Part shown: positions 4,378 through 60,398 of the stretch, one piece after another
Layout: every line of letters begins with the position of its first letter
How positions within the stretch are numbered: the stretch's first letter is position 1
IMG/VR virus record: IMGVR_UViG_3300025902_000617
From: an uncultured virus (IMG/VR IMGVR_UViG_3300025902_000617)
Taxonomy: Duplodnaviria; Heunggongvirae; Uroviricota; Caudoviricetes
DNA length: 64,000 nucleotides
Direction: 5' to 3' (one strand)
Program-made: the position numbers and the translations under genes
The notes under the pieces: generated by a model
Told to the model about the DNA's origin: nothing
Databases searched by the model: none
Seen by the model: the letters and a program-made list of their open reading frames with translations, nothing else

Positions 4378-5875
4378 TGTTTCAGTCTCACGATAAACCG
4401 CACACGCTTGTCTTCGAATGTCCCTTCTGCCTCGAAGACCTTAGTGTCGTCTCCCACCTGCAATCTTGATAATTTGCTTGAAAGGACTGCAAGCTCAGCG
4501 GGAGTTGTCACGAAAGATATTTCCATTACTCTTTCGATTTCAATTCCGATCCCGGCGCAATTTATTTTTCCGTCAATCATGTTACACCTGCAATTTTCAT
4601 TCGATCTGTTTTACCTTGTTCCTTGCATTGCCGCGGGGTTGAATAGCATTCGTCTGCATCCAGACAAAATACACATATTCCCGGCATCTCGCGGGAATCA
4701 AACCTATCGATGGGTCGCTTGTTACTCATCCTTACTCGCTCCCGTTGGAGTATCACGTTTCTTGATATACTCGATGAATTCGTCAATCTCTTCCTTCGTG
4801 AATATGGCGTGGAGTCTCCAGTCGTCTTTTCTCGATTCGACAAGTATACCACCGTGCGGCATATCCCAGAAATAGAGAAGTCGTTTCTTTCCTTTCATCA
4901 ACGATACCCTCTCGGAAACCTATGTGTGCATTCCCCGTCTTTGTAAATACTTACCATGTCGACCGGCTCGCGCGGGGTTTTTACACCGACGCTGCTGGTA
5001 CTAACGTCTTTAAGCATAGCAAAAACAGAGAACCTCAGCTTATCGTCGCTTTCATCTTCCAGATACTCGTAAATAAGTTGGATTTGCGCATCTGTTATGA
5101 TATGATTTTGTGAATGATCAGTCATTCCAATCCTCCGGAGAAAATCCCTTCACAAACAATCCCGACGACATAAGCATATTGTCGTCGTAAACATAGAAAA
5201 TTCGAATCCCCTTGCATATTATTTTCGATGGATCAAGGTTCAACGATTTTGCAAGGGATTTTCCGATTTTCTTTGCGAGAGCATTCATATCAACGTCTGA
5301 CTTGAAATGGAATTCATTGTCTGTCATAGGGCATCCCTCACTTACATTCACTCCGAAGAAATTCGAGCGTCTCGGCGATTGACACAAACCTCACAACCGA
5401 GCCGATGGTCGGGTTTTGAGGCCATTCAGCTTTATCCATGGTTTCGATTGCTGCGTCAAGTATTCTTTTTCTGTCGATCATTCGTCACCAGCTAGTCCGG
5501 CAGACTTCATATGGTTCTTTCACCGTCGGGATCGGGCAGAACGCGGGGACTTCGCCTTTCCAACCGTCACCAACATATGCAATATGCACCGGTGGTTCCC
5601 CGAGTTTCCTTGCGCCGGGGTTGGTACAGCAGTATTCCTCCGGATCGTGACAATCATTATTGCCGAAAAACTTGAGGAACGGACAGTTATAGCAGCTCCA
5701 TATCACCACTTGGATAACTCGTTTTTCTGTCATGGGGATCCAACCTTGTATCTATCGCAGATTTCTGCAATGTCATTCTTGCAGAACATGCAGACACCGC
5801 CAAGTTTCAGGGGATCGTTTTTCTTTAACTCGTCACACGTTCCATCCTTGTTTAATCTGCCACAGGTTTTCATTG

Positions 5876-8316: not shown

Positions 8317-8381
8317 CCCGTTTCTACGGGAAAAACCGTGTTCGGGGCATTTGCACCCCGAACGCCGCTTGTCGGTCACGG
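8317..8381 (-). repeat. tRNA-like T-loop element, copy A
   Basis: Minus strand: CCGTG-ACCGACAAGCGGCG-TTCGGGGTGCAAATGCCCCGAA-CACGG-TTTTT-CCCGTAGAAACGGG. Confidence 0.85.
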
Positions 8382-10139: not shown

Positions 10140-10200
10140 CCCAACACTGGGAAAAGCGCGCGCGGGGCATTGCACCCCGCCGGTCGCTGATCGGTTGCGC
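10140..10200 (-). repeat. tRNA-like T-loop element, copy B
   Basis: Minus strand: GCGC-AACCGATCAGCGACCG-GCGGGGTGCAATGCCCCGC-GCGCGC-TTTT-CCCAGTGTTGGG; starts right after a TAA stop. Confidence 0.85.
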
Positions 10201-10421: not shown

Positions 10422-10480
10422 GCCCAAACGGGCAAACCGCGCGCGGGGCTTTGCACCCCGCTGCCGCTTATCAGTCGCAG
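10422..10480 (-). repeat. tRNA-like T-loop element, copy C
   Basis: Minus strand: CTGCG-ACTGATAAGCGGCA-GCGGGGTGCAAAGCCCCGC-GCGCGG-TTT-GCCCGTTTGGGC; contains the TGA stop of 10471..10731. Confidence 0.85.
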
Positions 10481-11908: not shown

Positions 11909-11952
11909 CCGCGCGCGGGGCTTTGCACCCGCTTGCCGCTTACCGGGCGCGG
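11909..11952 (-). repeat. tRNA-like T-loop element, copy F
   Basis: Minus strand: CCGCG-CCCGGTAAGCGGCA-AGCGGGTGCAAAGCCCCGC-GCGCGG. Confidence 0.85.
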
Positions 11953-12503: not shown

Positions 12504-13397
12504 TTATGCCACCTGCCTAACTTCTGGTGTCGGGACGACAGGGGTAATCGCCGCAGACATATTCAGGAACTTGGCAGACATTGCGTCTATATCGCTCCTG
12601 ACATCCGGCGACAACTTCTCATTATGAGAGTTGTAGTAGCTCGCCGCGTTGAACAGATCCCACCGCGACGGCTCAAGACCGGCGATCTGTTCGACGATCT
12701 TCTTCACATGCCTGTCGGAGATCCCCTCATACGTGGCGATCATTGTTGCCTCAAGGGATTCCCGGGTCTCGAACTTAACCTTTGAATCCATGGCGACGTT
12801 GATCGCGTCCTGCAAGTATCCAGCCCTTGCAAGAAGTCCGTTCGTGAACGCCTCGATCACCGGAGGAACGCGCTCGTTCATGTCAACGGTGTGCCATTCA
12901 TGCACGAGAAACCCCGGGAGGATTCCCTGAGCCTTCGCACCGTTCGCGCACACGAGGCGCGTGGTATACCCGTCGCCCTTGAACGCGGTCTTTCTATCCA
13001 TGGAGTTTTCCAGATGGAAACCCAGCTCGACGATACTGTCCCCTCCGTCCGGAAGCTTTCCGTCAACAAGCTTGATCTCGTCGAACATCGCGGTGAGATA
13101 CGCGCGATCCTTCCACGTCTTGACAGACCCGTGGATCCCGGCGCCTCTCTTCTCAATCGCCGATGCCGCAAACCCGAACGCTGTCTTATGGTCAAAGACC
13201 GGGTACTCCATTGACGTGCTCATGCAGTGGTGGTGCTTCGTTACGTTTGTCATAACGCCGATCTTTCCGGTAATACCCTCGGGAAATTTCTCGTGGTAAA
13301 CCACTGCCGGGAGAACTTCGTAGTCGTCCATGCCTGATAGAATTGCCCTCAATTCCCCGATGTTTGCGAAATTCGCATTCATGTCTGTGTTTGCCAT
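12504..13397 (-). CDS. DUF932/DUF945-like protein
   Basis: Motifs LENSMD, RLVCANG and SRWDLFNAASY typical of the DUF932 family; AGGTGA SD. Confidence 0.75.
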   Translation of the reverse strand: MANTDMNANFANIGELRAILSGMDDYEVLPAVVYHEKFPEGITGKIGVMTNVTKHHHCMSTSMEYPVFDHKTAFGFAASAIEKRGAGIHGSVKTWKDRAYLTAMFDEIKLVDGKLPDGGDSIVELGFHLENSMDRKTAFKGDGYTTRLVCANGAKAQGILPGFLVHEWHTVDMNERVPPVIEAFTNGLLARAGYLQDAINVAMDSKVKFETRESLEATMIATYEGISDRHVKKIVEQIAGLEPSRWDLFNAASYYNSHNEKLSPDVRSDIDAMSAKFLNMSAAITPVVPTPEVRQVA

Positions 13398-13423
13398 TTC
13401 TCTTTTCACCTACTTTGTCTTAT

Positions 13424-13484
13424 CCCAACGACTGGGAAAACCGTGCGCGGGGCATTGCACCCCGCCGACGCTTATCGTTCACGG
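13424..13484 (-). repeat. tRNA-like T-loop element, copy G
   Basis: Minus strand: CCGTG-AACGATAAGCGTCG-GCGGGGTGCAATGCCCCGC-GCACGG-TTTT-CCCAGTCGTTGGG; contains the TGA stop of the upstream 30-aa ORF. Confidence 0.85.
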
Positions 13485-13571
13485 CATACTGTTTAGCGCG
13501 AACCACCCACATATTAAAAAATAAACCAGTCCAAGCACAACTGACAGCCAGAGTTTAAACCTGTTTGACAT
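13479..13571 (-). CDS. 30-aa single-TM peptide (MSNRFKLWLSVVLGLVYFLICGWFALNSMP)
   Basis: Translated by hand (below the ORF-track cutoff); GGAGG SD. Confidence 0.55.
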   Translation of the reverse strand: MSNRFKLWLSVVLGLVYFLICGWFALNSMP

Positions 13572-13710
13572 TGAATCCTCCAAAAACCGTTTGCTTGTAT
13601 ACTTTTACGTGGTGAACATAGCCACATTCGTCGCAAGACCATTCGCATTCGTTGGTCTGCGTTATACGCGGGCACCCACATTTCTTACACCTCACGGGTA
13701 TGGGTGGCAT
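13555..13710 (-). CDS. 51-aa Zn-ribbon protein
   Basis: Translated by hand: CKKCG...CDECG. Confidence 0.55.
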   Translation of the reverse strand: MPPIPVRCKKCGCPRITQTNECEWSCDECGYVHHVKVYKQTVFGGFNVKQV

Positions 13711-13714
13711 GGGT

Positions 13715-14350
13715 TCACTTCACCAGCTCATAGCACATCGGGCGCGTTCCCGGGTTGTAGCACCCGGTGGGGCACCGGATACAGGGGATTTTCTTACCTT
13801 CATCATCTAGCGCGCCGCAGTTGATGGTCAGGTTATGTTTTTCGGCGTATTCTGGAGTGACCACATTAAAGATCCCGTCCCATATCGGATCTGCCTTCGT
13901 TATCGCGGCATTAATATTCGGAGCGGACATTATGATCTTGAGGTTCGACGGCTTTCCGTGCATCTTGAAGTAATCTTCCACCAGCTTGTAATTCCGTGAC
14001 CATAGCGCAAAATGAACCCGCGGGTTCTTCCTGCATATGTTCACGTAGTTCGTAAGCTGGATTTCTCCCTTCTTGCCTACAAGAAGTTCCCCGAAGGCGT
14101 TAAACCGGCACTGCATGGCGTTCACGTAGGGTAATTCAGACATATCGAACACCCTTGAAGTGAGCACTTCCCCGTTATGCCAATATGATTGCTTTACGGA
14201 CGGGCGCAGCTTCTGGTATCTCAGTGCATAGCATACATGATTCATTAAGCAACCGTGACAGATGCCAGATTGCCCGGACGCACAACTAATATGGTGTGTG
14301 CCTTCCATTTTGCCCTTTGCATTGGTGTATACCTTGATCTCGCTGTTCAT
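13715..14350 (-). CDS. GP88-like Cys-rich (radical-SAM-related) phage protein
   Basis: CxxC-x5-CYA, RFNAFGE and FALWSRN motifs; GGTGA SD. Confidence 0.7.
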   Translation of the reverse strand: MNSEIKVYTNAKGKMEGTHHISCASGQSGICHGCLMNHVCYALRYQKLRPSVKQSYWHNGEVLTSRVFDMSELPYVNAMQCRFNAFGELLVGKKGEIQLTNYVNICRKNPRVHFALWSRNYKLVEDYFKMHGKPSNLKIIMSAPNINAAITKADPIWDGIFNVVTPEYAEKHNLTINCGALDDEGKKIPCIRCPTGCYNPGTRPMCYELVK

Positions 14351-14362
14351 TTTTCACCACTT

Positions 14363-14425
14363 TCCCATATGGGGATATTGTGGAAGGGGCTTGCACCCTA
14401 TTCCGCGCGTTTACGCGCCACAATA
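14363..14425 (-). repeat. tRNA-like T-loop element, copy H (divergent)
   Basis: Minus strand: TATTGTGG-CGCGTAAACGCG-CGGAATAGGGTGCAAGCCCCTT-CCACAATA-TCCCCATATGGGA; same architecture, fully different closing stem. Confidence 0.75.
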
Positions 14426-14937
14426 ATGCCTGTATACACTGAATCACACCAACTCACCCTTAAAAGCGCAAGGAAACCCTGTCTTTGAACGTGAACCGTC
14501 TGATCCGAGTGGATACAGGCATAAAAATAATTCTCTTACCACACCAGCACGCCGTCGCTCCTGTAATATCAACAGATATAGGGCTAGGGCTTTCCCGGTG
14601 GGGTTTTCTCTTCTTCCGTCACGGCAGGGACGTTGTGAGCGGCGGGCGTCTGCGGCAATACATCGGTGCCCTTTCGGGTTTACCTGTATAATGCCTGTTA
14701 CCCGTCACTGACTACGGTGTCCTCGTCTGAAACCGTGGCGCATCGCGCTCAAAGGGTGCCCCGTTGCCGTTCACCGTTGTTTAGACGTGGTTTAGGGCTG
14801 TCGGTGTGTGATATTTCAGACGTTCTGTTACCGAGTTTTGCGCTTATGACGTGCATCACTGGGACGTTCCGACGGTGTTTCGGTGCTTTGCGGCACCTCG
14901 AACCGACGCACCCCGAAGGGTATTGGAATGTCCGCAT
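14426..14937 (-). ncRNA. Candidate large structured non-coding leader RNA (~500 nt)
   Basis: No credible ORF; UUCG and GAAA tetraloop hairpins; several 8-14-bp long-range helices with G-U pairs on the minus strand; lies directly downstream of a TATA box. Confidence 0.65.
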
Positions 14938-14957
14938 ATAAGGTATGTAAGTAATCC

Positions 14958-14971
14958 CTTATAAATCTTTC
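14958..14971 (-). promoter_or_regulatory. Archaeal BRE/TATA promoter for the leftward operon
   Basis: Minus strand GAAAGA-TTTATAAG ~20-25 nt upstream of the start of the structured region. Confidence 0.7.
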
Positions 14972-15027
14972 TGATTATTACAGAATAATGAGAAAAGGGT
15001 GTAATCCCAGTAGTGGCATTTAACGCC

Positions 15028-15043
15028 AATTTAACGTTAAATT
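15028..15043. other. Perfect 16-bp palindrome AATTTAACGTTAAATT (possible operator or recombinase site)
   Basis: Directly visible; extra ATTTAACG half-site at 15018-15025; intergenic. Confidence 0.5.
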
Positions 15044-15152
15044 TTAACACGCCGTCCCCCCGTTTTACGACAGTTTATCGATTCTTTTTGGGATATATTC
15101 ATCGCAATTATCTATTCAAATCCATACAATTCGTCCCGTGTAAATCTATATA

Positions 15153-15512
15153 TTACTGGTATAATACATTTAAAAAAAAATAATCTCGGATTGGGTGTAT
15201 GCGATGCATCCGGTATGCCCTGATGCCATATGACTGGCGTTGTATTATCTTCCCTTCTGCTATCGCATCATATATCAGGTTCGGATCTCCGGGATAAAAT
15301 CTAATACTGTCATTGACTATTTGACTATATGCACTTTCCACATCACATTTCTTGTCGGGATCTGTATAATCGATCCAAGTATAAACCGGGATACGGCATT
15401 CCGTAGAAATCCATGGTAATAACAAATCGTATTTGCGTATATCGTTCGCACTACCACGCTCGTATAAACCGAGTTCCACATTCTTCTTCCAATTACGTTC
15501 TATGTATTTCAT
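15153..15512 (-). CDS. Hypothetical protein
   Basis: ATGA overlap with the recombinase stop. Confidence 0.6.
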   Translation of the reverse strand: MKYIERNWKKNVELGLYERGSANDIRKYDLLLPWISTECRIPVYTWIDYTDPDKKCDVESAYSQIVNDSIRFYPGDPNLIYDAIAEGKIIQRQSYGIRAYRMHRIHPIRDYFFLNVLYQ

Positions 15513-16432
15513 AAGATGCCCGCTTTAACCATATAGTGTTCCGTTGTCATAACGTTTTTAACTTTCTCATTAAATTTCCCGAAGTCGGTATATCGATCTG
15601 CCATGGTGGTTGTGTGCCCAAGTATAGTATCTATTACCACGTCTTCTACCCCAGCCAATCGCATTTGCGTTTGGAATGTGCGTCTTCCGGTATAACTTGT
15701 GACATGCAAATTATTAATAGTGTATTCTCCGAGATGATCGGTAAGCCATGCGTTCGGGTTTGCAAACTGTGGTATCGCAGCGCACCACCGCTTTAAATGC
15801 GGAGTGATACCGGGCGCCCATGGAAGATATCGATAAAAATTCACTTTGGCCGTCCACAATTGCATTTCGTTATTCTCCCAATCGATTTTTGCAGGGTGCT
15901 CGACTCCTGAAGTTCTTAACCAGTAACCAATTTCTATTGGGCGCCCCCCGAAATAAAATTGCAAAATCGTTCCACTTGTAATGAGTTCGGCCAGTTTTGT
16001 GCGATTGCGTTTTTTAATTTCATCAAGCAATTCCGAAATTTCGTCAGTGTTAAGAGACTTCCGTTCACGATTAACGGTCTTCGGACGGGCATTGACAAGT
16101 GACAATTGACTTAATCGCTGATTTTCCATAATAGAGCGAGTATCGTTAAGAGGAATTGTAGCGCAACGAAAACGCATGTATCCCTTTACCGATGATAAAA
16201 ACTGATTTGCCGTGTGCGCGTTCGGTATGTTGCTAAAATACTCCTGAATGTCAGTAAGCATAAACGTATCGAATGTTTTTCCGCGTTTCCCTATCCAACA
16301 CGCGAAAGATGAAAGCAATGATAAATATACCCTAGCGGCTGGTGATTTATTGCAACTCTCTAAGTGTTTCGTATATCTGCGTATTTCAGATATATCCCCC
16401 AGATTCAAATTCGTTACATCCACGGAAATCAC
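15509..16432 (-). CDS. Tyrosine recombinase/integrase (Xer-like)
   Basis: Catalytic R (FGGRPIE), K (TAK), YTGRRTF (HxxR box with H->Y), ILGH and Y (DRY); N-terminal core-binding domain. Confidence 0.85.
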   Translation of the reverse strand: MISVDVTNLNLGDISEIRRYTKHLESCNKSPAARVYLSLLSSFACWIGKRGKTFDTFMLTDIQEYFSNIPNAHTANQFLSSVKGYMRFRCATIPLNDTRSIMENQRLSQLSLVNARPKTVNRERKSLNTDEISELLDEIKKRNRTKLAELITSGTILQFYFGGRPIEIGYWLRTSGVEHPAKIDWENNEMQLWTAKVNFYRYLPWAPGITPHLKRWCAAIPQFANPNAWLTDHLGEYTINNLHVTSYTGRRTFQTQMRLAGVEDVVIDTILGHTTTMADRYTDFGKFNEKVKNVMTTEHYMVKAGIL

Positions 16433-16818
16433 TTGCTATCGGATATTGCTTGTAAACGTCTGATACCAGCTTCAGTAATCTTATATGCCGATGGTTCGAA
16501 CCCTACCCTATTTGGTGTTATCGACGCTATATATGGAAGATGCCGCTTACCTTGTTCCGGGGTTCGATGCATGGTATTTGCATTCATCTCTGAAATTATA
16601 GCACGAAAACTCGCATATTTCCCGGGAGCCTTGTGCAGTGCTTCAACGCGATATCTTTTGAATTCTTTGAACAGTTTATTCACGTATTCACCGTCTCCGC
16701 GAAGTGAATTGAGATAAACTAATACGAATTCTTCCATAGACATTGGTTTATTAAAATCGTGTGTGATAACGATTACCAATTCTCCGGGTTTTGGAGTTTT
16801 AATTTTCTTCGAACGCAT
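16429..16818 (-). CDS. Hypothetical protein, possibly winged-helix
   Basis: C-terminal YKITEAGIRRL resembles a wHTH wing; overlaps the recombinase start. Confidence 0.55.
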   Translation of the reverse strand: MRSKKIKTPKPGELVIVITHDFNKPMSMEEFVLVYLNSLRGDGEYVNKLFKEFKRYRVEALHKAPGKYASFRAIISEMNANTMHRTPEQGKRHLPYIASITPNRVGFEPSAYKITEAGIRRLQAISDSK

Positions 16819-22161: not shown

Positions 22162-22468
22162 AGTATTTCACAGAAAATTCTGCGCGTTTTATTTGCCTTT
22201 CGTTTCCAGATTCCTTTGCAACCATAAGCCAATCATCGCATAGTTTCTTCAATGTTTCTTCTCCGGGTTTGATGCATTCTTCCATTACTATCATATGGAA
22301 CATGCGCGTATGTGGGTTCTTTGGATCTTTCTCGATAGATGCCTCAAACAGTTTTACTGCTTTTTTCGGGTCTCCCCACCCTGCCTCTGTAAAGCCATCG
22401 TAAAACAAATCGAGCGCCTCTCCGGGTTCAAATCCGTAAAGTTTTCCGAACTCTTCTTTGTCGTCCAT
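22100..22468 (-). CDS. TPR-like protein
   Basis: AVKLFEASIEKDPKNP TPR signature; AGGTGA SD before the ATG at 22468. Confidence 0.7.
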   Translation of the reverse strand: MDDKEEFGKLYGFEPGEALDLFYDGFTEAGWGDPKKAVKLFEASIEKDPKNPHTRMFHMIVMEECIKPGEETLKKLCDDWLMVAKESGNERQIKRAEFSVKYYASTPEERAGIFSSVIGKHR

Positions 22469-22514
22469 GATTCTCTTTTCACCTTCGATAATATACATGC
22501 CGGAGTCGATGCGC

Positions 22515-22760
22515 ACCGATGATCAGTCGGCGGTTGTGGGTCGCTTTCCTCCTCACAATACCATTAAGCGCACAACTCCGGTGGGTATATAGTTGCCGCA
22601 ACCCATTTTCTTCATTGCACGAAACGGGAGCTCATATGACAAACGAGAATCGTTCCGCGCTCTTGGGCAATGGAACCCAACCGCCATTTTGTTTTAGTCC
22701 GCTCCGTGGTGATCAACTCCACTGACAGGGAAGTGCATCTAGGCTTGAACGGATCTTCCA
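22515..22760 (-). ncRNA. Candidate structured leader RNA
   Basis: Nested helices GGCGGTTG/CAACCGCC, CCATTG/TAATGG, AGCGCGGAAC/GTTGTGCGCT downstream of a TTTATTAA box. Confidence 0.45.
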
Positions 22761-22846
22761 GTAACAGTATTGGTATTTCAATTTAATAAAGGTTGCCAAT
22801 CAATTAGTCACCAACCTTTATAATCTTAAAATCCCAATACTTTTGT

Positions 22847-31887: not shown

Positions 31888-34344
31888 ATGTCAACATCAG
31901 AATCGAAAATGTTTCGGTTTCTCAAAACACATGGCACGGTTGACTTGGATGAACTCGTGCAGGGAGCCGAAGTAAGCTACGGGGCGGCTGAGGCATTTAT
32001 AGAAAAATACTTGCTATCTCAAACCATCATAAAAGTAAATGGCAAGTACCGACTAAGAGTTGTACTCGATCCACCGCTCAAGGAAATGCCGCAAACAACC
32101 CAGTTCTGGGACTTCGGGAAAATCCGCGCGCGCATTCAGAGTGAAACTGGAGTAGAAGCTATATCCGTTCCTAGGAAATGGCGCAATCCTTACATCGATT
32201 ATCTCCCGAAAAAGATCGATCAAGGAGATCGTGGAACTTGCTTCCACGGATCTACTAGCATTTTAATGGAGAACTTCGAATATAGACGGATACGGGACAT
32301 ATCCGTCGGAGATTACGTAATAACTCATACCGGAGAAAAGGGAAAAGTTATCGATGTTATGAAACGAAAATGGCAGGGAAACACATATAAATTATACATA
32401 TATGGCATAAACACCCCGATTGAATGCACCGGAGAGCATCCTATATTGACGCGCTTTGGGTGGAAAGACGCCGCGGCGCTATCTAAAGATGATTATGTTG
32501 CCATTCCAACATTGAGTGATATTAGTTTCGACAAATCTATTTATACATTCGAGGGCGACCCCGATTTTATGTGGGTTCTTGGAATGTATCTCGCTGAAGG
32601 ATCTCTCGACGATAAATGTTATGAAACCCGTGACAGTGGCCTCCGTGTAACATTCTCGTTGAATCACGACGAGACCAGTTTTGCAGAACGTATAAAATCT
32701 ACAATGACCAAATATGGAGCTTCGGTATCATTCCGTTATAAACACGAGAATAGCGTGATGAGAGTTGATATCGCCGGTGAAAAGTGGGTAAAGATATTCA
32801 AAGAACTCGGGAATGAATATTGCAACCACAAGAAACTCGCAGATCGTATAATGTTCGCACCACCAGAACTTCAGTATTCAATATACGAGGGGTGGAGAGA
32901 TGGCGATGGCCACAAACGCGTAGACAGGGGTTGTTGGGAAACGGTAACAACGTCATACGATCTGGCCATTCAGATGCAGCGCATTCTGCTACGCAATAAT
33001 ATTCGCGGAAACGTTCAAACGCGCGCTACCCCAGACGGAAAACTTGAGAGTTACACTCTTGAAGTAAACGATCAGGTCGGCAAACTTCGCGGGGTATTCG
33101 AAAACGGATACTACTTCTCGAAAGTCAGAATGATAGAAAAAATCCCGCAATATATGGGGGGTCACGTATATAATCTAGAAATAGAGGGAGACCACTCGTA
33201 CATCGCAGAGTCTGTGGCAGTTCACAACTGCGTGGGTTTCTCTACTGCAATTGGACTGACACTACTGTATTACCAGATTACGAAAGATCTTCCAACCGCT
33301 ACTGAAATGGCAGCAATGAAACGAAATGTAGAGGAGTCAATCGGGTGTACCAACGGAAAACCACTCGTGCGAGACGATTTCGGAAAAAGATGGAAAAGCC
33401 CTGAGTTTATATACGACCGAAGCCGTGAAGTTGGAAATGTGACGGAACCTTCTGGCTCATACCTGTCTGCCGCAGTTAAAGCTATACGCGACTTTGGTTC
33501 ATGCTTCGAAAACGAGTGCTGGACATCCAAAACCCCGTATTGTGTTGGACAGTTTTACCCGGTTCTGTCGGGAGAAACGCAGGAACAGGCCAAGGCACGC
33601 ATATTAGCATCCGCGGCTCAGCATAAAACGGAAGGTTACGCATCGATTAACGATTTCGATTCCCTATGTGATGCGATTTATACACAGTGGGCTTCCGGCA
33701 ACGGAGGGGGGTTTGCACTCATTCCAATCGACATCTTTGGAAACTACACCAATAACGGATGCACGGGCATTTACCCGGATCCGGTTGGACTTTCAATCGG
33801 TTCACACGCACAATGTGTTGTCGGGTTCGATAAGGACGCGCGCACGCTTGAGTTCCGCCAGTCGTGGGGAGATAACTGGAGCGACGATGGTGGAATAACA
33901 GAGAGATATTTCGACCTCGCTGCCGGGACAGCGTTCGTCATTCTCGACAAAGAGGAAACGGCAATTGCCCAGAAATTGTACTCGCGCGTAGAACTAAAAT
34001 GCAATGTCCCTGTAGAGTATTTTACCGTGGGTGGAGAAGAGCATGCCGGATCCAATCTGGTACTTGCTTTAGAGCGCGGGAAAACATTCAGTTTCGTTGT
34101 ATACCCAGCGTATCCAACGAAAGTGGTAGAGAAAAGCCTCGCGTTTGATGCCACCCCGACAGAAGAGAATGTAACCATTACGGTTGTGTTCACTGCGAGG
34201 GCAGACCCAAACCCGAACCCGGATCCAAACCCGGATCCAAACCCCGATCCAAACCCAAACCCAGATCCAAATCCCATAAGCAAAAGCTGGATTCAGATAC
34301 TCATTGATTTCATCCGTAAAATCATTGAAATTTTCAAAAGATAA
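31888..34344 (+). CDS. Papain-like (C1) cysteine peptidase interrupted by an intein
   Basis: Spliced sequence DQGDRGT|CVGFS; GSHAQCVVGFD; RQSWG; PD/PN linker and amphipathic tail. Confidence 0.9.
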   Translation: MSTSESKMFRFLKTHGTVDLDELVQGAEVSYGAAEAFIEKYLLSQTIIKVNGKYRLRVVLDPPLKEMPQTTQFWDFGKIRARIQSETGVEAISVPRKWRNPYIDYLPKKIDQGDRGTCFHGSTSILMENFEYRRIRDISVGDYVITHTGEKGKVIDVMKRKWQGNTYKLYIYGINTPIECTGEHPILTRFGWKDAAALSKDDYVAIPTLSDISFDKSIYTFEGDPDFMWVLGMYLAEGSLDDKCYETRDSGLRVTFSLNHDETSFAERIKSTMTKYGASVSFRYKHENSVMRVDIAGEKWVKIFKELGNEYCNHKKLADRIMFAPPELQYSIYEGWRDGDGHKRVDRGCWETVTTSYDLAIQMQRILLRNNIRGNVQTRATPDGKLESYTLEVNDQVGKLRGVFENGYYFSKVRMIEKIPQYMGGHVYNLEIEGDHSYIAESVAVHNCVGFSTAIGLTLLYYQITKDLPTATEMAAMKRNVEESIGCTNGKPLVRDDFGKRWKSPEFIYDRSREVGNVTEPSGSYLSAAVKAIRDFGSCFENECWTSKTPYCVGQFYPVLSGETQEQAKARILASAAQHKTEGYASINDFDSLCDAIYTQWASGNGGGFALIPIDIFGNYTNNGCTGIYPDPVGLSIGSHAQCVVGFDKDARTLEFRQSWGDNWSDDGGITERYFDLAAGTAFVILDKEETAIAQKLYSRVELKCNVPVEYFTVGGEEHAGSNLVLALERGKTFSFVVYPAYPTKVVEKSLAFDATPTEENVTITVVFTARADPNPNPDPNPDPNPDPNPNPDPNPISKSWIQILIDFIRKIIEIFKR
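32239..33228 (+). mobile_element. Intein (330 aa) with LAGLIDADG homing endonuclease
   Basis: Starts CFHGST; block B CTGEHP; LGMYLAEG and GWRDGDG; block F VYNLEIEGDHSY; ends VHN followed by Cys+1. Confidence 0.95.
34204..34275 (+). repeat. Coding tandem repeat (Asp/Asn-Pro)n linker
   Basis: GAT/AAC-CCN repeats with synonymous variation encoding DPNPNPDPNP... Confidence 0.85.
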
Positions 34345-39077: not shown

Positions 39078-39323
39078 ATGGCTGGTAAAGGCGTGTGGTT
39101 ATATCTCAATGGTCGTGGTGGGGATTTCCCGGATAACTATTTTGATCCAATACAATTAGAAAAAGGTATACGCGTTGAGATGGAACACACCGACAACCCA
39201 GACGTTGCAAAAATTATCGCGAAAGGTCATATATATGAGTTTCCCGAGTATTACGAGTATCTAGATGAAATGGAAGCACAACTTAAACAAAGAGAATGCG
39301 TTAGAAGAGTTTTTGGATGGTAA
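39078..39323 (+). CDS. DUF5661-like small protein
   Basis: LxKGIxVEMEH...AxxIAxxHxxExPxYYxxL signature. Confidence 0.7.
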   Translation: MAGKGVWLYLNGRGGDFPDNYFDPIQLEKGIRVEMEHTDNPDVAKIIAKGHIYEFPEYYEYLDEMEAQLKQRECVRRVFGW

Positions 39324-39810: not shown

Positions 39811-40527
39811 TTACATGTGTGATTTTTTGTATAATTCTTGAAAAGAAACTATTTGGAGAGAAGGTCTATAATCGAAATAGAGATCAATCTTGTATTTCAT
39901 ACTCGGAATTACATATGGTTCTATAACAGATTTCAATTTTATCATGCTTTCTTCTTCCGTTATAAATAAATCTTTAATGCGCTCTCCATTTTTGGCAATC
40001 ACACCGCGGTTTCTAGATTCAGAACTGATTCCGAACTTACACTTTAACCATTCCTGTAACAATTCGGATTCCTCGGACGTTCTATCTCCAAGTGCAAACT
40101 GCATATTTCTAGATTTATACATATCATTAAACAAAAATCCGTCATCTAGATACCATAATGCTAACGATATTGGATGATATATCGAATCTATCCATTTTTC
40201 GGTAATTGTTTTTCGTCCATTTACAATAACACAATCATATATAGGTTTCAAACATATAAGTCGTCGTGTAGAAAACGTAATTTTTTGATGTTGTTTTCCC
40301 GTTCCATCACTACAGACCGAAACCTTTGGTTTAGATGGGCATAAATTTGAAAGATTTAAATGAATCCATTCGCAATATTCTTTCTGTTTGATAGAATGGG
40401 TTATACACACATGCGGATTGATACTAGATTTTTCTATTGCAATATATCCATCTCCGAGTAGAGTTCCCATAATAATCTGCTTCTGAATTTCAGTAAGCTC
40501 TATTGCATTTAAATCTTTACGATTCAT
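39811..40527 (-). CDS. Free-standing LAGLIDADG homing endonuclease
   Basis: IMGTLLGDG and LALWYLDDG motifs; PSMKYKI end. Confidence 0.9.
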   Translation of the reverse strand: MNRKDLNAIELTEIQKQIIMGTLLGDGYIAIEKSSINPHVCITHSIKQKEYCEWIHLNLSNLCPSKPKVSVCSDGTGKQHQKITFSTRRLICLKPIYDCVIVNGRKTITEKWIDSIYHPISLALWYLDDGFLFNDMYKSRNMQFALGDRTSEESELLQEWLKCKFGISSESRNRGVIAKNGERIKDLFITEEESMIKLKSVIEPYVIPSMKYKIDLYFDYRPSLQIVSFQELYKKSHM

Positions 40528-41504: not shown

Positions 41505-41800
41505 CCACGCTCATATTTTACAAGTACTTCCGCAACATTATCGGGTATTTTCCAAAATGCCGCATTCGAACCACTCACCACGGCAGGCGCTGTCTGCGCG
41601 CGCGTTATAAGTCCACAAGAATCCCACTTGCATATTTCGGCGCTTGTGGTGTCAGGAAGCACGGTGTTCTTAAGCTCGCGCGCGGTAAATGGATCCTTAC
41701 CAAACTTATGATAAATTTTTAAAAGCCGTTCCTTGTCGTCCTCGCTTCGTAAGTACCTCACTGACGGAGATCCTTCAACCGCGCGCGTTTCCAGACTCAT
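41501..41800 (-). CDS. Hypothetical protein, possible winged helix
   Basis: PFTAREL...WDSCGLI. Confidence 0.55.
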   Translation of the reverse strand: MSLETRAVEGSPSVRYLRSEDDKERLLKIYHKFGKDPFTARELKNTVLPDTTSAEICKWDSCGLITRAQTAPAVVSGSNAAFWKIPDNVAEVLVKYERG

Positions 41801-42663
41801 TTCTTTTCACCGGCAAGCCTGAGATCTTCCACGCGCTCTCGGTAATAAACAATCAGTTTCTTTTCCGGTTGGCTGCAATTGTGTTTTTTGCATTCTTCTC
41901 CAACATATTCTGCGAGTTTTGGCATTGCGAGCTTTATATTGAAGAAATCTTCTCCTAGATCTGCGAAAGTTTTTTCGACAGATCCGGTAACTTCGCTATC
42001 TGGCAACGGGGGTAATATGATCGCACCACTCGTCTCAACGCGCACCACTTTTTCATAACGCGGGGTATCGTTCTTTTCCTTGAAATAGATGTAATCGGAT
42101 CCTTTCACGTGTTTTCCAACAACACCCTCCCTGTTATTATCAAGTGATTTTTGAAGCATTTGTTCTTTGACATTCAAAAGATCTTCCAGCGTATTGACGT
42201 TGCACGTTCCGTACAGTCCTACAACCGGGAGCTTGTTATGATAACACTCCTGATATGTCTTTGTGTAATTGAAAAACCCTCCGGTTTTCACAGACCAAAT
42301 ATCGAAAACCACGAACGAATGATCTTCGTGGAATTCGATCTTTGTCGGAGACTTCCCTTTTATAAGAAGCTCTCCAAATACGACATACGTATCTTTCCAG
42401 TTTTCCGCATCGCGCAGAAGTTCCCCGACGGACTCGTATTCCGGGGTCATTTTCAGATAGTTCTGGAACTGCTCGGATGCAACATCCATATGTCTGCTCC
42501 CGCATACGACATCTCCGTTCTCATTGAGATAGATTCTAAGATTGCTGCCATCCCGTTTCTCTTGGAATACAATTTCCTTTCCGAGAAGAATGTGCGGATT
42601 CGGATACTGGTTGATAATTGTTGTCAGATCGGGATATGAAATTCTCGACACATCTACGAACAC
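41797..42663 (-). CDS. ATP-dependent RNA ligase (Rnl2-like)
   Basis: Motif I EKRDGSN, VFGEL, FVVFDI, REGVVGK, YFKEK. Confidence 0.8.
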   Translation of the reverse strand: MFVDVSRISYPDLTTIINQYPNPHILLGKEIVFQEKRDGSNLRIYLNENGDVVCGSRHMDVASEQFQNYLKMTPEYESVGELLRDAENWKDTYVVFGELLIKGKSPTKIEFHEDHSFVVFDIWSVKTGGFFNYTKTYQECYHNKLPVVGLYGTCNVNTLEDLLNVKEQMLQKSLDNNREGVVGKHVKGSDYIYFKEKNDTPRYEKVVRVETSGAIILPPLPDSEVTGSVEKTFADLGEDFFNIKLAMPKLAEYVGEECKKHNCSQPEKKLIVYYRERVEDLRLAGEKK

Positions 42664-45765: not shown

Positions 45766-47625
45766 TCAAACTGATTTGCAGTTACCTTTATATTTTTCTG
45801 ATAGCATGTTTATTTCCGAAAGCGCTATTTCGTTATATTTAGAAGAGATATCTATCCCGATATATCTTCGGCCAAGTAATTTGCATGCTGCACCAGTTGT
45901 CCCACGCCCACTGAATGGATCAAGAACTATATCATTTTTATATGTTAACAAGTTAATAGCGCGCAGTGGGAGTTCAATGTCAAAACTCGCCTGAGTTTTC
46001 GTTGATGTTGCAGCACGATATGGCCAGACACCTTTCACAGATGTCATAAATTCATCACGCCCTATGGTAGATATTCCCTTGCTCTCTTTTTTCCACACAT
46101 CTTTGCATGCGATGAGAACACACTCTTCTGGATTGTATGCATATGGAGCAGATGCACTCATCCAAGAGTTTCCACACCACGTTATCTTCCCATTTCTTCG
46201 AACCAACAATGTTTTATTAGGAACCGAGACGCAGTATACGAACCCTGTGTAATCCACATAGCGCGAGATTTGATTATTGTATCTACGTTTTATGTGATAC
46301 GCGCTACTCTTTTTTATTGTTATCGTGTAGAGATCGCGAGTTCCCCTGATTACAACTCCGTTATATTCACGCGATTTCGATAGCGGTTGTGCCCCGGTGG
46401 ATATTGTGTACCCGGCACGTATAAACAAAGTCGCCATCTCCTCCATAAATGCGCGCGACGGGCAACGCAACCGCGTCTGTGATCGCGATGTAGATCCGTC
46501 TCCGATCATAACCCCATGTATAAAATATTCTATCTGTCCCTTTGATAATGATCGTATAAAATCCGGGATAATGCGATTGTTCTTATCACCAAGTTTTGAT
46601 AAGTATGACGTGAGTTGTTTACTGCAAGTATAATACTCTCCCTTGCTCTCTTTTCGAGAGAATCCGAATGGAAGCCGTTCTAACAGAGATGATATTTCGT
46701 CGATATACTTCTCCTTTGTCTGATAAATCGAAACTTTATACTGTCTATTTTCCGGACTATGATAACAATTCCCATCAGTGCAAAACAAACCCAAAAATAC
46801 CAGCCAGTCGTTCATTGCTATTGGTTCAACAACATTCTTAACATTATCATTCGGTATAACTTTATCCACAATCGGGAGTTGGAAGAATTCCAGTTCTTTT
46901 CCGTCATCCCACCCATCGTGGCCTTGCGGTATTATAAGCGCACTTCCATTGGATTCTATATTTCTCATCGAATCGATACCGATCTTTGTTTTGTCGTTTC
47001 CAAATGAGTACACCATATTATGATCTGGCGTTACCAATAAATCGAAAGTGCGGGTTTTTATAGCGCGCATCTCTCCAGAGTACGGCTTTGCGATATAATC
47101 GAAAGCTTTCTGGTAAACCATTTTGTGCGTATCAAGATCAATCGTCGCAAACACGTCTCTATTTATATCGACATCGCGGAACAATTTAAATCCAACGTCG
47201 GTAAGGACTTCGGTTTTATCATCGTAGCACCCCCACGCCGTGTACTTTATGCGTTCAGACTGATTCTCTTCGAGACGCATAATTCCGTTAAATCCGAATC
47301 CGATCTCTTTCATGATCTGCCACACGTCGGAGATCACAAAAACCCTCCCCCCTCTCCCGGGCTGACTTATTTCATAGAACAAATTGATTGCAATACGCCC
47401 GTCTCGTTTTAGTACACCATACGCCTTCGTTAGCCAACTGCGCATGAATTCCAAGTATTCGGCGTATTGTTTTTCGTCATCCCAACAGTCATACTTTATC
47501 TTACAGTTGTATGGGGGAGATGTTACAATAAGGTCTACACTACTCAATGGTATTGCTTTTCCCATAATATCACGAGCATCTCCTGTTATCAGCACTGGGT
47601 TTAAATCAGTCGGTATCATTTTCAT
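45766..47625 (-). CDS. N4/N6 DNA methyltransferase interrupted by an intein
   Basis: TSPPY at the N-terminus, LDPFSGRGTT at the C-terminus; spliced junction TAWG|SWMS. Confidence 0.9.
   Translation of the reverse strand: MKMIPTDLNPVLITGDARDIMGKAIPLSSVDLIVTSPPYNCKIKYDCWDDEKQYAEYLEFMRSWLTKAYGVLKRDGRIAINLFYEISQPGRGGRVFVISDVWQIMKEIGFGFNGIMRLEENQSERIKYTAWGCYDDKTEVLTDVGFKLFRDVDINRDVFATIDLDTHKMVYQKAFDYIAKPYSGEMRAIKTRTFDLLVTPDHNMVYSFGNDKTKIGIDSMRNIESNGSALIIPQGHDGWDDGKELEFFQLPIVDKVIPNDNVKNVVEPIAMNDWLVFLGLFCTDGNCYHSPENRQYKVSIYQTKEKYIDEISSLLERLPFGFSRKESKGEYYTCSKQLTSYLSKLGDKNNRIIPDFIRSLSKGQIEYFIHGVMIGDGSTSRSQTRLRCPSRAFMEEMATLFIRAGYTISTGAQPLSKSREYNGVVIRGTRDLYTITIKKSSAYHIKRRYNNQISRYVDYTGFVYCVSVPNKTLLVRRNGKITWCGNSWMSASAPYAYNPEECVLIACKDVWKKESKGISTIGRDEFMTSVKGVWPYRAATSTKTQASFDIELPLRAINLLTYKNDIVLDPFSGRGTTGAACKLLGRRYIGIDISSKYNEIALSEINMLSEKYKGNCKSV
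46168..47229 (-). mobile_element. Intein (354 aa) with LAGLIDADG endonuclease
   Basis: Starts CYDDKTEV; block B VTPDH; LGLFCTDG and GVMIGDG; ends WCGN with Ser+1. Confidence 0.9.
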
Positions 47626-47950: not shown

Positions 47951-48397
47951 TCACAGCCTCCTGAATGCGTCTATGAGCAATTTCTCTACCCTTGATGTTA
48001 TCCCGGGTGTTACAGATTCTCGATTACCTGCAATATTTATAACCTTTGGGTTGTTCTTGTTTATATATTCTACAATCTGATCGATGGTCGGGTTGAGTAA
48101 ATGCCCCTTCCCAAATTTTATGCAGGTGTTAAGTGTCAACCTCGTTCCAGAACTGTTGACATTTGCTGCAAATACAAATGTTGCATCAGACATCTTTACG
48201 TTTTCTACCGTCCTCTGCGCATATGTATAGTGCTTGTCAACGAGATTGTACATTTTGGCATAATCTGGTCGCTTTCCGTTTTCTGTTTCAAAACCGTTTG
48301 CGGCAAAACCTCCGGTATCAAGTCCGCACTTCCGCGCGGCAACAAGACCAGCGATATCCGCGCCGGATTGCCCTCCCGATATAATTTTTATTATCAT
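47951..48397 (-). CDS. SLOG-superfamily (molybdenum-carrier-like) protein
   Basis: IISGGQSGADIAGL, RTVENVKMSDAT, INIAGNRES. Confidence 0.85.
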   Translation of the reverse strand: MIIKIISGGQSGADIAGLVAARKCGLDTGGFAANGFETENGKRPDYAKMYNLVDKHYTYAQRTVENVKMSDATFVFAANVNSSGTRLTLNTCIKFGKGHLLNPTIDQIVEYINKNNPKVINIAGNRESVTPGITSRVEKLLIDAFRRL

Positions 48398-49080
48398 GCT
48401 TCACCTTTAAATACGATATTTGTTTTATATTCCATAGACGGAACAACATATGGTTCGATTAAAGTTTTCATACGAATTAAATTTTCCTTCCTGTATATTC
48501 TGAGTTCTTTATATATTCTTTTGTATATACCAGTTCTCGAAGAATCACAAATAATACAATCTATATTCCATTGCCGTTTAACCCATTCCTTTAATATTTC
48601 ACACTCTTCTTCGGTTTTATTCCCAAGTGCAATTCGCATCTTATGAGTGTATATATTCCCGGATCTGCGTTTCTCGTTACTCAAACTCCCGTCATCAAAA
48701 TACCAAGCTGCCAAAGCAATCGGATGGGTAATTTCATTCAGCCATTCTCTCGATATGGTTTTGTAACCATCTTGCATTACAACATCATGTATTGGGAGTA
48801 AACACGGAAGACTCATGGATCTGAAATAAACACTCTCGCGCATCTTTCCAAAACTTTCACAAACCATATTCTTTGGCTTTATTTTACATAAATTTAACAG
48901 ATGGTTGTATTTATACAAAACATAATCCAACTGCGTAAGAGAGTGATGTATATGTAATAGGGGATTGTTTTGACGCGGCGGTATCCGAATACACATATCT
49001 CCGAGTAATCCACCTAAAATGAATTGGCGCTGTACGTCGGTAAGTTTTATAAAATTTCTAATATCGCTTCGTTTCAACAT
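48394..49080 (-). CDS. Free-standing LAGLIDADG homing endonuclease
   Basis: ILGGLLGD and LAAWYFDDG; clear paralogue of 39811..40527. Confidence 0.9.
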   Translation of the reverse strand: MLKRSDIRNFIKLTDVQRQFILGGLLGDMCIRIPPRQNNPLLHIHHSLTQLDYVLYKYNHLLNLCKIKPKNMVCESFGKMRESVYFRSMSLPCLLPIHDVVMQDGYKTISREWLNEITHPIALAAWYFDDGSLSNEKRRSGNIYTHKMRIALGNKTEEECEILKEWVKRQWNIDCIICDSSRTGIYKRIYKELRIYRKENLIRMKTLIEPYVVPSMEYKTNIVFKGEA

Positions 49081-53404: not shown

Positions 53405-54046
53405 TCAATCCCCCAAATCCAATGCGCGGAGGTTGTACAGAAAATCTCTGAATTCTTCTTCTCTCGGAACCTCTGGTAGTTTTGAGTATTTGTAGGCATT
53501 TTCAATACGAGCAAATGCCTCCTCTATGTCTTCCTTGGTCACTTCTTTCGTGATTGGGGTGAATATCGCTTTCCCCTTCTCAAGCAAATTTATTCCAAAT
53601 GTAAGCGTCCTCAAAGCCTGTTTATATGCTTTATTCGGAAACATCTGTGGCCTCTTCGTATGATCTTTGAAACTGCTTATTGCCATCCCGCTGATCGATG
53701 CATAAGTTGCCTTTGACAAATTGTCAAGTGTGATATCTCTCAATACTCTCAATGATAGTGCATCCGTTATAACAATCGGGCTTGTGACTACCCATATGGC
53801 ATTGCAATTGCCCTTTATCAGTAAATTGACGAGATGCCCTATCTCTATGTATTGATACTCCCACTCAAGCCCACGGTCATCTATAAATTTTCGACTCGGT
53901 TTGTTGCGATCCACGGCCTTTCCAGACAATATATCACGGGTTGGTCTCGCATATACTTGCATGATATCGCGATCACTTTCTTTTCTCCCCATTCCCCACA
54001 TGAAACTTCCTACTTCTGTTTCAAAGAGAACTCTGTCTTTCGTCAT
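53405..54046 (-). CDS. Pol-beta-superfamily nucleotidyltransferase (YcgL/RlaP-like)
   Basis: VGSFMWG...SDRD motif; LIKGNCN. Confidence 0.8.
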   Translation of the reverse strand: MTKDRVLFETEVGSFMWGMGRKESDRDIMQVYARPTRDILSGKAVDRNKPSRKFIDDRGLEWEYQYIEIGHLVNLLIKGNCNAIWVVTSPIVITDALSLRVLRDITLDNLSKATYASISGMAISSFKDHTKRPQMFPNKAYKQALRTLTFGINLLEKGKAIFTPITKEVTKEDIEEAFARIENAYKYSKLPEVPREEEFRDFLYNLRALDLGD

Positions 54047-54089
54047 TTTATCACAATACTGTATGTATTCCAAGTTTAAAAATGTTTGT

Positions 54090-54395
54090 TTAAGGCATAT
54101 TATATATAGCATGCCTGTAATTTGTGGAATCTGGCATGATTATAGTGCACCCGTAGGGTGTAGTATTTTTCTGGTAATATATCTCATCTGTTTTATTATA
54201 AATCTGAAAACCACACTCTGTTGAGTTTTCTTTGAAGTCTCCATAGACTACGTAACCTTGTCCAGTGTAATAAATATCTGCGATATATGTCCAAGATGGG
54301 GTTACATTTTCTTGGGGGTGCGCAGTCATGCACCCAGACAAGGCTGACGCTATCAGGGCGAACACCAGAAATAAGACCGAATATACTTTTGTCAC
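54090..54395 (-). CDS. Putative lipoprotein
   Basis: Hydrophobic N-terminus ending in lipobox-like LSGC. Confidence 0.6.
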   Translation of the reverse strand: MTKVYSVLFLVFALIASALSGCMTAHPQENVTPSWTYIADIYYTGQGYVVYGDFKENSTECGFQIYNKTDEIYYQKNTTPYGCTIIMPDSTNYRHAIYNMP

Positions 54396-60299: not shown

Positions 60300-60398
60300 A
60301 TAGTGAACTCTTTGCGTTATAGATATATAAATGTTTTCACGGTGCGCGGCGCCATATCGTTCGGAAACGTATATATAGATGCGCGACCATCTTTATTT

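Follow-up and report, generated by a model that had tools for sequence, protein, structure and literature searches.

A candidate structured non-coding RNA of about 510 nucleotides at the head of the early genes of an uncultured virus with archaeal-type promoters

GOLLD, ROOL and OLE are large bacterial RNAs, and their biology is largely open. GOLLD and ROOL are described as prophage-associated RNAs that often lie beside tRNAs and are possibly co-transcribed with them (PMC5737381), and homo-oligomeric complexes are reported for ROOL, GOLLD and OLE (PMC12286853). The 3' ends of MALAT1 and NEAT1 are described as being cut by the tRNA-processing machinery at a tRNA-like fold (PMC12941219). Ribonuclease P (RNase P) is described as an enzyme whose substrates are tRNA-like or hairpin RNAs, among them the P4 CI and P1/P7 C4 RNAs, which derive from leaders (PMC5499578). 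No report of a large structured non-coding RNA (ncRNA) in an archaeal virus was found in the literature searched, which was a limited library. Here we analyse a stretch of 64,000 nucleotides (the window) from an uncultured virus (IMG/VR IMGVR_UViG_3300025902_000617), which belongs to a 125-kb viral contig. On its minus strand, from about 14937 to 14425, a feature of about 510 nt stands at the head of an early gene cluster. An original prediction, drawn from the letters of the DNA, had placed here a large structured leader RNA that switches between two mutually exclusive folds. Our analysis supports a large structured ncRNA that heads the array and follows a TATA-type promoter. We consider it fairly likely that the feature is a gene for a new, stable structured viral ncRNA, cut from the early transcript at an adjacent tRNA-like element (element H), in a virus that uses archaeal-type promoters. 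The features are collected in Table 1.

The RNA has two clear relatives. A profile scan of a metagenome collection for the GP88-family protein encoded just downstream gave 13 loci, with the window's own contig among them. In two of these metagenome contigs, L004 and L002, a homologous non-coding stretch lies ahead of the same GP88-family gene. By nhmmer the window matches L004 with an E-value of 1.5e-13, and L002 matches L004 over the full length with 75.5 bits; the window and L002 are linked via L004 only. A model of the core (R1) scores the three copies at 119-151 bits and finds only these three seeds, with no paralogue in the window and without L006. The latter locus has the same promoter and a 357-nt non-coding stretch with good folding (z-score -3.87), and shares only the promoter and about 40 bases by nhmmer; a 12-bp helix, GCGCTATAGCCCC/GGGGCTATGCGC, was seen by eye directly past its GATGC. 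Coding sequence lies upstream of GP88 in L003 and L005, and coding sequence or ordinary short leaders in the distant GP88 loci L007-L013. No further homologue was found in IMG/VR by exact 25-mers, by protein scans for GP88 and integrase or by motif scans, in species genomes by a GP88 scan, or among phage records by blastn. The 35 IMG/VR loci returned by one motif scan were rejected as chance matches.

Comparison of the three RNAs reveals three helices that are kept while their sequences change. Helix P_A, which closes the central domain, reads ACATCTC/GAGATGT in L004 and ATATCCCC/GGGGATAT in L002. Six of its eight register positions are paired in all three RNAs and three carry changes on both sides; an invariant GATGC flanks it 5' and an invariant AAGA 3'. 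A kink-turn reading of these flanks was dropped, as judged by eye their spacing is unlike that of the standard motif. Helix P_B is 10 bp long in the window and 12 bp in L004, where it reads GGATAACGGGTT/AATCCGTTATTC, and becomes AGACGG/CCGTTT in L002. Pairing holds in all three RNAs at 5 of 12 register positions, and both sides change at 10. It encloses the invariant ACACACCGAC (14809-14800) and two hairpins, GCCCU/GGGGC (14798-14794 with 14762-14758) and GCGC-GAU-GCGC (14748-14738). On an alignment of the core, RNAalifold predicts P_B and its two enclosed hairpins unaided, with both-side changes in 11 of 29 pairs. Helix P_C is replaced by CACGGG/TCCGTG in L004 and by GATAGG/CCTATT in L002; all six positions are paired in all three RNAs, three with both-side changes, and the helix encloses a conserved GAAAGC (14594-14589). 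The invariant ACACACCG (14800-14809, minus strand) also occurs, letter for letter, within the universally conserved 1400 region of 16S ribosomal RNA; a chance match of 8 nt is expected and we give it no weight.

The number of such helices exceeds chance in a column shuffle of the three-sequence alignment. Four helices of at least 6 bp stand at aligned places in the three sequences against 0.51 expected, a count reached by 2 of 150 shuffles. A second count gave five against 0.86 (0 of 150), and a loose tolerance eight against 2.95 (2 of 100). P_C appears in the unconstrained minimum free energy (MFE) fold of all three RNAs, and that of L002 already holds P_A, P_B and P_C. Imposing the three helices raises the folding energy by 5.5 kcal/mol in the window and by 11 kcal/mol in L004. 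With three sequences this covariation gives P_A, P_B and P_C good support at the level of helices, which is not statistical proof. Several covarying helices carry G-U pairs; read on the opposite strand, these positions would be A-C mismatches. The G-U pairs and the direction of the genes lead us to take the minus strand as the RNA strand. A further helix predicted by RNAalifold, P_D (ACUCG/CGGGU in the window and CACAC/GUGUG in both homologues), has registers that are off by several columns and is unproven. A consensus from MAFFT and RNAalifold on the full-length leaders was unreliable.

At the 5' end, helix P1 encloses the hairpins TACCC-TTCG-GGGTG and GGTGC-CGCAAA-GCACC. L004 (GCAGCGG/CCGCTGC) and L002 (TATGGC/GCCATA) likewise start with a closed multi-hairpin domain; the sequences of this domain cannot be aligned among the homologues, so its support is at the helix level only. 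The two-hairpin domain, the CCC-GAAA-GGG hairpin (CCCGAAAGGG, 14669-14678) and TTTATAA within 14958-14971 are all where the original prediction had them.

RNA coverage, one of the checks proposed with that prediction, was found in all four RNA libraries examined, which come from four studies; each holds a contig on the ncRNA. The 3.5-kb segment 13000-16500 is present in runs from anaerobic digesters, activated sludge, wastewater and biofilm, and 7 of the runs listed are RNA libraries. The X11 and X12 contigs lie wholly on the ncRNA stretch, without a mismatch or loose end, and both stop at 14928. This shared end is a weak hint of a real end; the start that the TATA box predicts is 7-9 bases farther out. 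At its other end X12 stops at 14429, 4 bases before element H, and X11 at 14403, 22 bases inside it. X11, X12 and X17 have no other cover on 13000-16500, which is merely compatible with an accumulation of the leader and was not used as evidence. The breaks of X8 contigs at tRNA-like elements near 13435-13485 and at element H were likewise left out, and so was the k-mer depth of its leader contig (290, against 3.5-8.75 in its four others), which cannot rank genes.

Presence in RNA libraries would also be expected of a functionless long 5' leader whose folded remnant outlasts cleavage or decay of the mRNA. Structured 5' fragments often outlive their mRNAs, and contigs prove neither function nor level. 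We find this explanation improbable all the same, as the invariant blocks and covarying helices persist while the flanking proteins have diverged to 53-55% identity (GP88) and 43% (integrase). The invariant blocks are GATGC, ACACACCGAC, AACGGGGCA, GCGC-NNU-GCGC, AAGA and GGGAAAGC. Together, single-stranded blocks of 8-10 nt that do not change and helices that covary, set against 43-55% protein identity, argue for selection on the RNA itself.

The 3' end of the RNA is probably set by element H. Its closing stem covaries, with 7 of 8 positions paired in all three sequences and three changed on both sides. We propose that transcription would start about 23 nt past the promoter boxes, near 14937-14935, the RNA forming the first part of the early-operon transcript. 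It would then fold into the P1 domain, a central domain closed by P_A that holds P_B and the invariant single-stranded motifs, the P_C domain and, in this virus, a long terminal hairpin. A cut at element H would free it from the mRNA that follows. The most plausible agent is host RNase P, cutting the acceptor-like stem at its 5' edge; the tRNA-like and hairpin substrates that RNase P cuts make it the natural candidate. The RNA would persist as a separate stable molecule. Strand, cleaving enzyme, stability and archaeal host are all inferred here. Release at element H had been part of the original prediction, and the RNA contigs do end beside or inside the element, although contig ends are not proof of a cut.

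How such an RNA would act is a matter of guesswork; it might work in trans, perhaps as a scaffold or as a decoy while the host is taken over or carries the virus. Its size, its invariant unpaired blocks and its place at the head of the early genes suggest action via the fold. Antisense targets were sought as exact Watson-Crick matches of at least 11 nt to the minus strand within the window, and only chance-level ones appeared: the longest complements are 12 nt (5604-5615) and 11 nt (39185-39195), neither in the operon directly downstream. On a bolder reading, which we put forward tentatively and think rather doubtful, this would be the first class of large ornate RNA in an archaeal virus. The RNA would be abundant, made from the strongest early promoter and freed by host tRNA-processing enzymes at a viral tRNA-like mark. 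It would act by its three-dimensional fold, as a self-assembling particle, ribozyme or host-factor decoy, and not by pairing with a target.

The stretch could instead be a cis-acting leader that controls the early operon via alternative pairings, as the original prediction held; we regard this as unlikely. The operon transcript begins with this RNA, and between the RNA and the first gene no site resembling a terminator was found, as a leader would have it. The individual pairings quoted for the two folds can be formed on the minus strand. In Fold 1, 14814-14822 pairs with 14724-14732 at 9 of 9 positions, and this long-range helix is P_B, which covaries in two homologues. The terminal hairpin of the same fold (14509-14522 with 14426-14439) pairs at 13 of 14 positions and has a shorter equivalent in L004 (GTATTATGG/CCATGGTAC) and none in L002; comparison supports it, as it does the P_B helix. 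In Fold 2, 14515-14522 pairs with 14691-14698 at 8 of 8 positions, and the proposed pseudoknot, 14838-14845 with 14464-14471, also forms 8 of 8 pairs. Its partner and the main Fold 2 duplex lie in the segment 14443-14496, an insertion specific to this virus that is absent from L004, which has a short hairpin at its place, and from L002, which has none. Comparison thus supports neither the pseudoknot nor the main duplex. A nested Fold 2 must also break P_A and P_B, and reaches -162.5 kcal/mol against -170.8 kcal/mol for the covariation-supported fold and -175.0 kcal/mol for the MFE, which makes it 8-12 kcal/mol weaker than the alternatives. No riboswitch, T-box or other leader family in Rfam matches.

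In a narrower form of the switch, the 5' arm of the terminal hairpin has two possible partners, its own 3' arm, which would abut element H, and an ACAGG segment farther upstream; the choice would alter downstream processing or expression. Pairing of this arm with an upstream ACAGG/ACGGG segment can form in the window as TGCCTGTAT/ATACAGGTA and ATGCCTGT/ACAGGCAT (8 of 8 and 9 bp), and a covarying version exists in L004 (GCCCGTA/TACGGGT). An invariant ACACAC block finds a GUGUG partner in a 3' hairpin in all three RNAs. Against this form too stands L002, which lacks the terminal hairpin. Judged from sequence, these recurring pieces could reflect local alternative pairing, a pseudoknot or tertiary contacts, and one compact fold would accommodate them. 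There is poor support for a global switch between two folds that exclude each other.

The promoter of the proposed ncRNA gene is of an archaeal type. A conserved TATA box with a B recognition element (BRE) rich in A is described for archaeal promoters (PMC5316973), and a BRE/TATA box stands at the same distance from the RNA start in all four loci (the window, L002, L004 and L006). No sigma-70 site was found in 14200-15300. At least seven other open reading frames (ORFs) of the window (69-183 aa) have a similar TATA box 29-34 nt ahead of their ATG and no ribosome-binding site, and the distance from TATA box to start of the ncRNA agrees with this. Boxes of this leaderless type are seen, for example, at 60331, 39802, 38782, 21762, 17380 and 16847 (minus) and at 22817 (plus). 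Such spacing is the positional rule for archaeal promoters and leaderless mRNAs. From these boxes and the leaderless ORFs we take the host to be an archaeon, as the promoter pattern suggests, and given the habitats of the samples it is probably a methanogen. The proteins were not decisive on the host: GP88 relatives occur in Pelagibacter and Roseobacter phages and in a Methanomicrobiales virus, and the primase gave no match when host identity was sought.

Several observations weigh against a stable, separately processed ncRNA. Folding beats shuffled sequence only modestly, and the two strands barely differ. Over the same 513 nt with 100 shuffles each, the minus strand has a z-score of -2.27 (2 of 100 shuffles as good) and the plus strand -1.82 (4 of 100), so that the folding check proposed with the original prediction gave a modest result. 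Other runs gave -3.29 (509 nt, 60 shuffles) and -4.84 (610 nt with element H, only 20 shuffles); minus-strand windows of 300 nt over the feature range from -1.3 to -3.1, near the values of some coding windows, and L002 reaches only -1.10. The family has only three clear members, and the covariation rests on these few sequences. All the RNA evidence consists of assembled contigs, which are blind to strand, true ends and level, and DNA may be present in RNA libraries. The X11 contig runs into element H, and a cut at the 5' edge is thus not demonstrated. An ATG stands at the predicted start in three of the four loci (the window, L002 and L006), opening 62, 47 and 37 codons, and some translation from it is possible.

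This last point would fit a leaderless mRNA whose 62 codons (14937-14749) encode a small protein or a leader peptide, the more so as the TATA distance is that of the virus's leaderless genes. It also qualifies the earlier claim of no credible ORF; the frame is not conserved. In L004 the predicted start is a GTG followed by a stop after 3 codons. The three ATG frames have no similarity, the conserved blocks are read in different frames, and the window's frame spans only the first third of the conserved RNA. No conserved reading frame was found: every forward frame of the four leaders has 7-12 stops, and an all-against-all comparison of 109 stop-to-stop peptides gave only short chance-level matches (E ~1e-4 or worse). 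Across the homologues pairing is kept and the reading frame is not. We judge an mRNA of this kind very improbable; the ATG may have been left behind by the promoter of a leaderless gene, or may open a short leader peptide.

Upstream of the promoter, the conserved DNA motifs at 15018-15061 are probably the binding site of a regulator or recombinase, a function read from sequence. Motifs GGGGGGACGG and TTGACGTTAATTTGACGT recur upstream of the homologous promoters in L002, L004 and L006. A scan of the window for the upstream motif gave matches no commoner than chance (7 found, 9.6 expected). The direct repeats, together with the integrase-like gene upstream in the window and in L004, could point to an element that works as DNA, such as an attachment site, origin or operator. 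This explanation has a very slight probability in our view. Contigs from RNA libraries cover the stretch, and the covarying helices use G-U pairs. The cumulative GC skew turns elsewhere, near 58-61 kb, and the core motif was not found in 185,579 species genomes, which gives no sign of a host-derived attachment site.

The RNA matches no known family, and the proposed RNA family is new. An Rfam search of the whole window gave no match at the gathering score, with GOLLD, ROOL, OLE, HEARO, RNase P, group I/II introns, riboswitches, T-box and transfer-messenger RNA (tmRNA) included. At E-values up to 10, on 3 kb and on 581 nt (the latter with 4227 models), only ES173, a CRISPR repeat, a small nucleolar RNA and a tymovirus tRNA-like element came up, all far under the gathering score. 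ARAGORN found no tRNA or tmRNA gene in the window. RNase P RNA is marked by a P4 pseudoknot built from the conserved CR-I and CR-V regions and by 5' and 3' ends that pair in P1. For this RNA there is no model match, and the ends of the RNA are unpaired with each other in the covariation-supported fold; GGGAAAGC and ACAGAA resemble CR motifs of RNase P RNA, in the opposite order. One of the known large families (RNase P RNA, tmRNA, group I/II intron, GOLLD, ROOL, OLE or HEARO) could have a divergent member here: the size is similar, and tRNA-like neighbours in a viral genome recall those often described for GOLLD and ROOL (PMC5737381). With none of these searches returning such a family, we give this possibility almost no weight.

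Table 1. Positions of the proposed RNA, its helices, neighbouring elements and the RNA-library contigs in the window
Feature	Position	Strand	Length	Parts	Basis or remark
RNA itself	14425-14937	minus	~510 nt		RNA-library contigs and homologues; 3' end at or near the 5' edge of element H
5' domain, helix P1	14862-14933	minus		GGACATTCC (14933-14925) with GGAACGTCC (14870-14862)	minimum-energy folds
Helix P_A	14617-14851	minus		CGTCAT (14851-14846) with GTGACG (14622-14617)	covariation; closes central domain
Helix P_B	14724-14822	minus		CGTCTGAAAT (14822-14813) with GTTTCAGACG (14733-14724)	covariation; Fold 1 helix
Helix P_C	14542-14600	minus		CACCGG (14600-14595) with CTGGTG (14547-14542)	covariation; outer CC/GG conserved
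Terminal long hairpin	14426-14522	minus		14522-14509 with 14439-14426	13/14 bp; virus-specific insertion 14496-14443
tRNA-like element H	14376-14425	minus		8-bp closing stem (14425-14418 with 14383-14376); hairpins CGCG-TAAA-CGCG and GGG-UGCAAG-CCC	
GP88-family gene (PF17338)	13715-14350	minus			first gene downstream of the RNA; Pfam E 1.2e-10
Archaeal-type promoter	14958-14971	minus		purine-rich BRE, then TATA box TTTATAA (14965-14959)	kept in L002, L004 and L006
Upstream DNA motifs	15018-15061	minus		GGGGGGACGG, then two direct repeats TTAACGTTAA / TTGGCGTTAA (also given as TTGACGTTAA type), ~11-12 bp apart	conserved; function inferred
X11 contig	14403-14928		526 nt		
X12 contig	14429-14928		500 nt		
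X17 contig	14590-14919		330 nt		
X8 contig	14482-14916		435 nt		

The ncRNA lies in a gap of 802 bases without a convincing gene (14351-15152). A 119-codon ORF stands upstream of this gap, and farther upstream is the integrase-like gene (15509-16432; PHROG integrase, E 1.2e-9). A run of nine T at 15140-15152 (minus), directly past the stop of the 119-codon ORF and with no hairpin ahead, resembles an archaeal oligo-T terminator. On the other side, the GP88 gene is preceded by a small hairpin, CCCCAUAUGGG, and a GGUG ribosome-binding site; its protein has 13 homologues at 50-62% identity, the window's own protein excluded.

The gene array downstream of the RNA is punctuated by five repeats of about 50 nt together with element H. 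Between the genes these repeats carry five more GGGG-UGCAANG-CCCC hairpins (8345-8359, 10164-10178, 10445-10459, 11917-11931 and 13449-13463, minus; 0.22 expected by chance), and their closing stems differ. The sequence CGGGG-UGCAANG-CCCCG also occurs singly in 37 other viral-contig loci (IMG/VR L049-L085), often past a stop codon or before a ribosome-binding site. At most one of the 37 (L076) weakly resembles the L002 element (nhmmer E 0.0027). Rather than mimic a T-loop, this sequence may simply form a stable hairpin of a generic kind, its loop being GNRA-like.

A second promoter of the same type is found at 22760-22800 (minus), where AACCTTTATTAA ... CCAATACTG is nearly identical to the promoter of the L002 RNA. 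About 300 nt without a gene (22468-22768) follow before an ATG at 22467. This second leader (22468-22768, minus) folds no better than its shuffles (z-score -0.80).

Elsewhere the window encodes inteins, LAGLIDADG endonucleases, several DNA methylases, a primase-polymerase, an RNA ligase and an RlaP-family protein. An intein with Hint and LAGLIDADG domains lies within an 818-aa protein (31888-34344, plus). A LAGLIDADG domain is also found within a DNA methylase, and two LAGLIDADG endonuclease genes are free-standing (45766-47625, 39811-40527 and 48394-49080, all minus). The RNA ligase (PF09414), the RlaP-family nucleotidyltransferase of RNA-repair systems and a cpYpsA SLOG protein (41797-42663, 53405-54112 and 47951-48397, all minus) may together serve RNA repair or counter-defence in this virus with its many tRNA-like elements.

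The proposed ncRNA offers a defined promoter, predicted ends, covarying helices and expression evidence in wastewater and digester communities, and could serve as a tractable new example. Because it heads an array that tRNA-like elements punctuate, processing by tRNA punctuation in a probable archaeal virus becomes directly testable.

Among known RNAs, GOLLD and ROOL come closest in kind to the proposed RNA: all are several hundred nucleotides long with many helices and junctions, lie in viral or prophage DNA and had no function known at discovery. The ncRNA differs from them in lacking a match to their Rfam models, in its archaeal-type promoter and in its neighbour, which is a tRNA-like element and not a tRNA gene. 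With MALAT1 and NEAT1 it would share a 3' end directly ahead of a tRNA-like fold. Those are mammalian nuclear RNAs of unrelated sequence, whereas the cleavage proposed here is read from contig ends alone. For element H, the tymovirus tRNA-like structure is the nearest model: element H has an acceptor-like stem, and its GGGUGCAA hairpin aligns weakly with the T arm of that structure. The match is non-significant (14.3 bits against a gathering score of 40, E 2.1), and element H is not a member of that family. The immunity RNAs P4 CI and P1/P7 C4 are antisense RNAs of about 70 nt. The RNA found here is about 510 nt long, and only the two exact complements of 12 and 11 nt given above occur in the window. 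Its position fits that of the immunity RNAs, which are described as coming from the leader of their own early-operon transcript and as being substrates of RNase P (PMC5499578).

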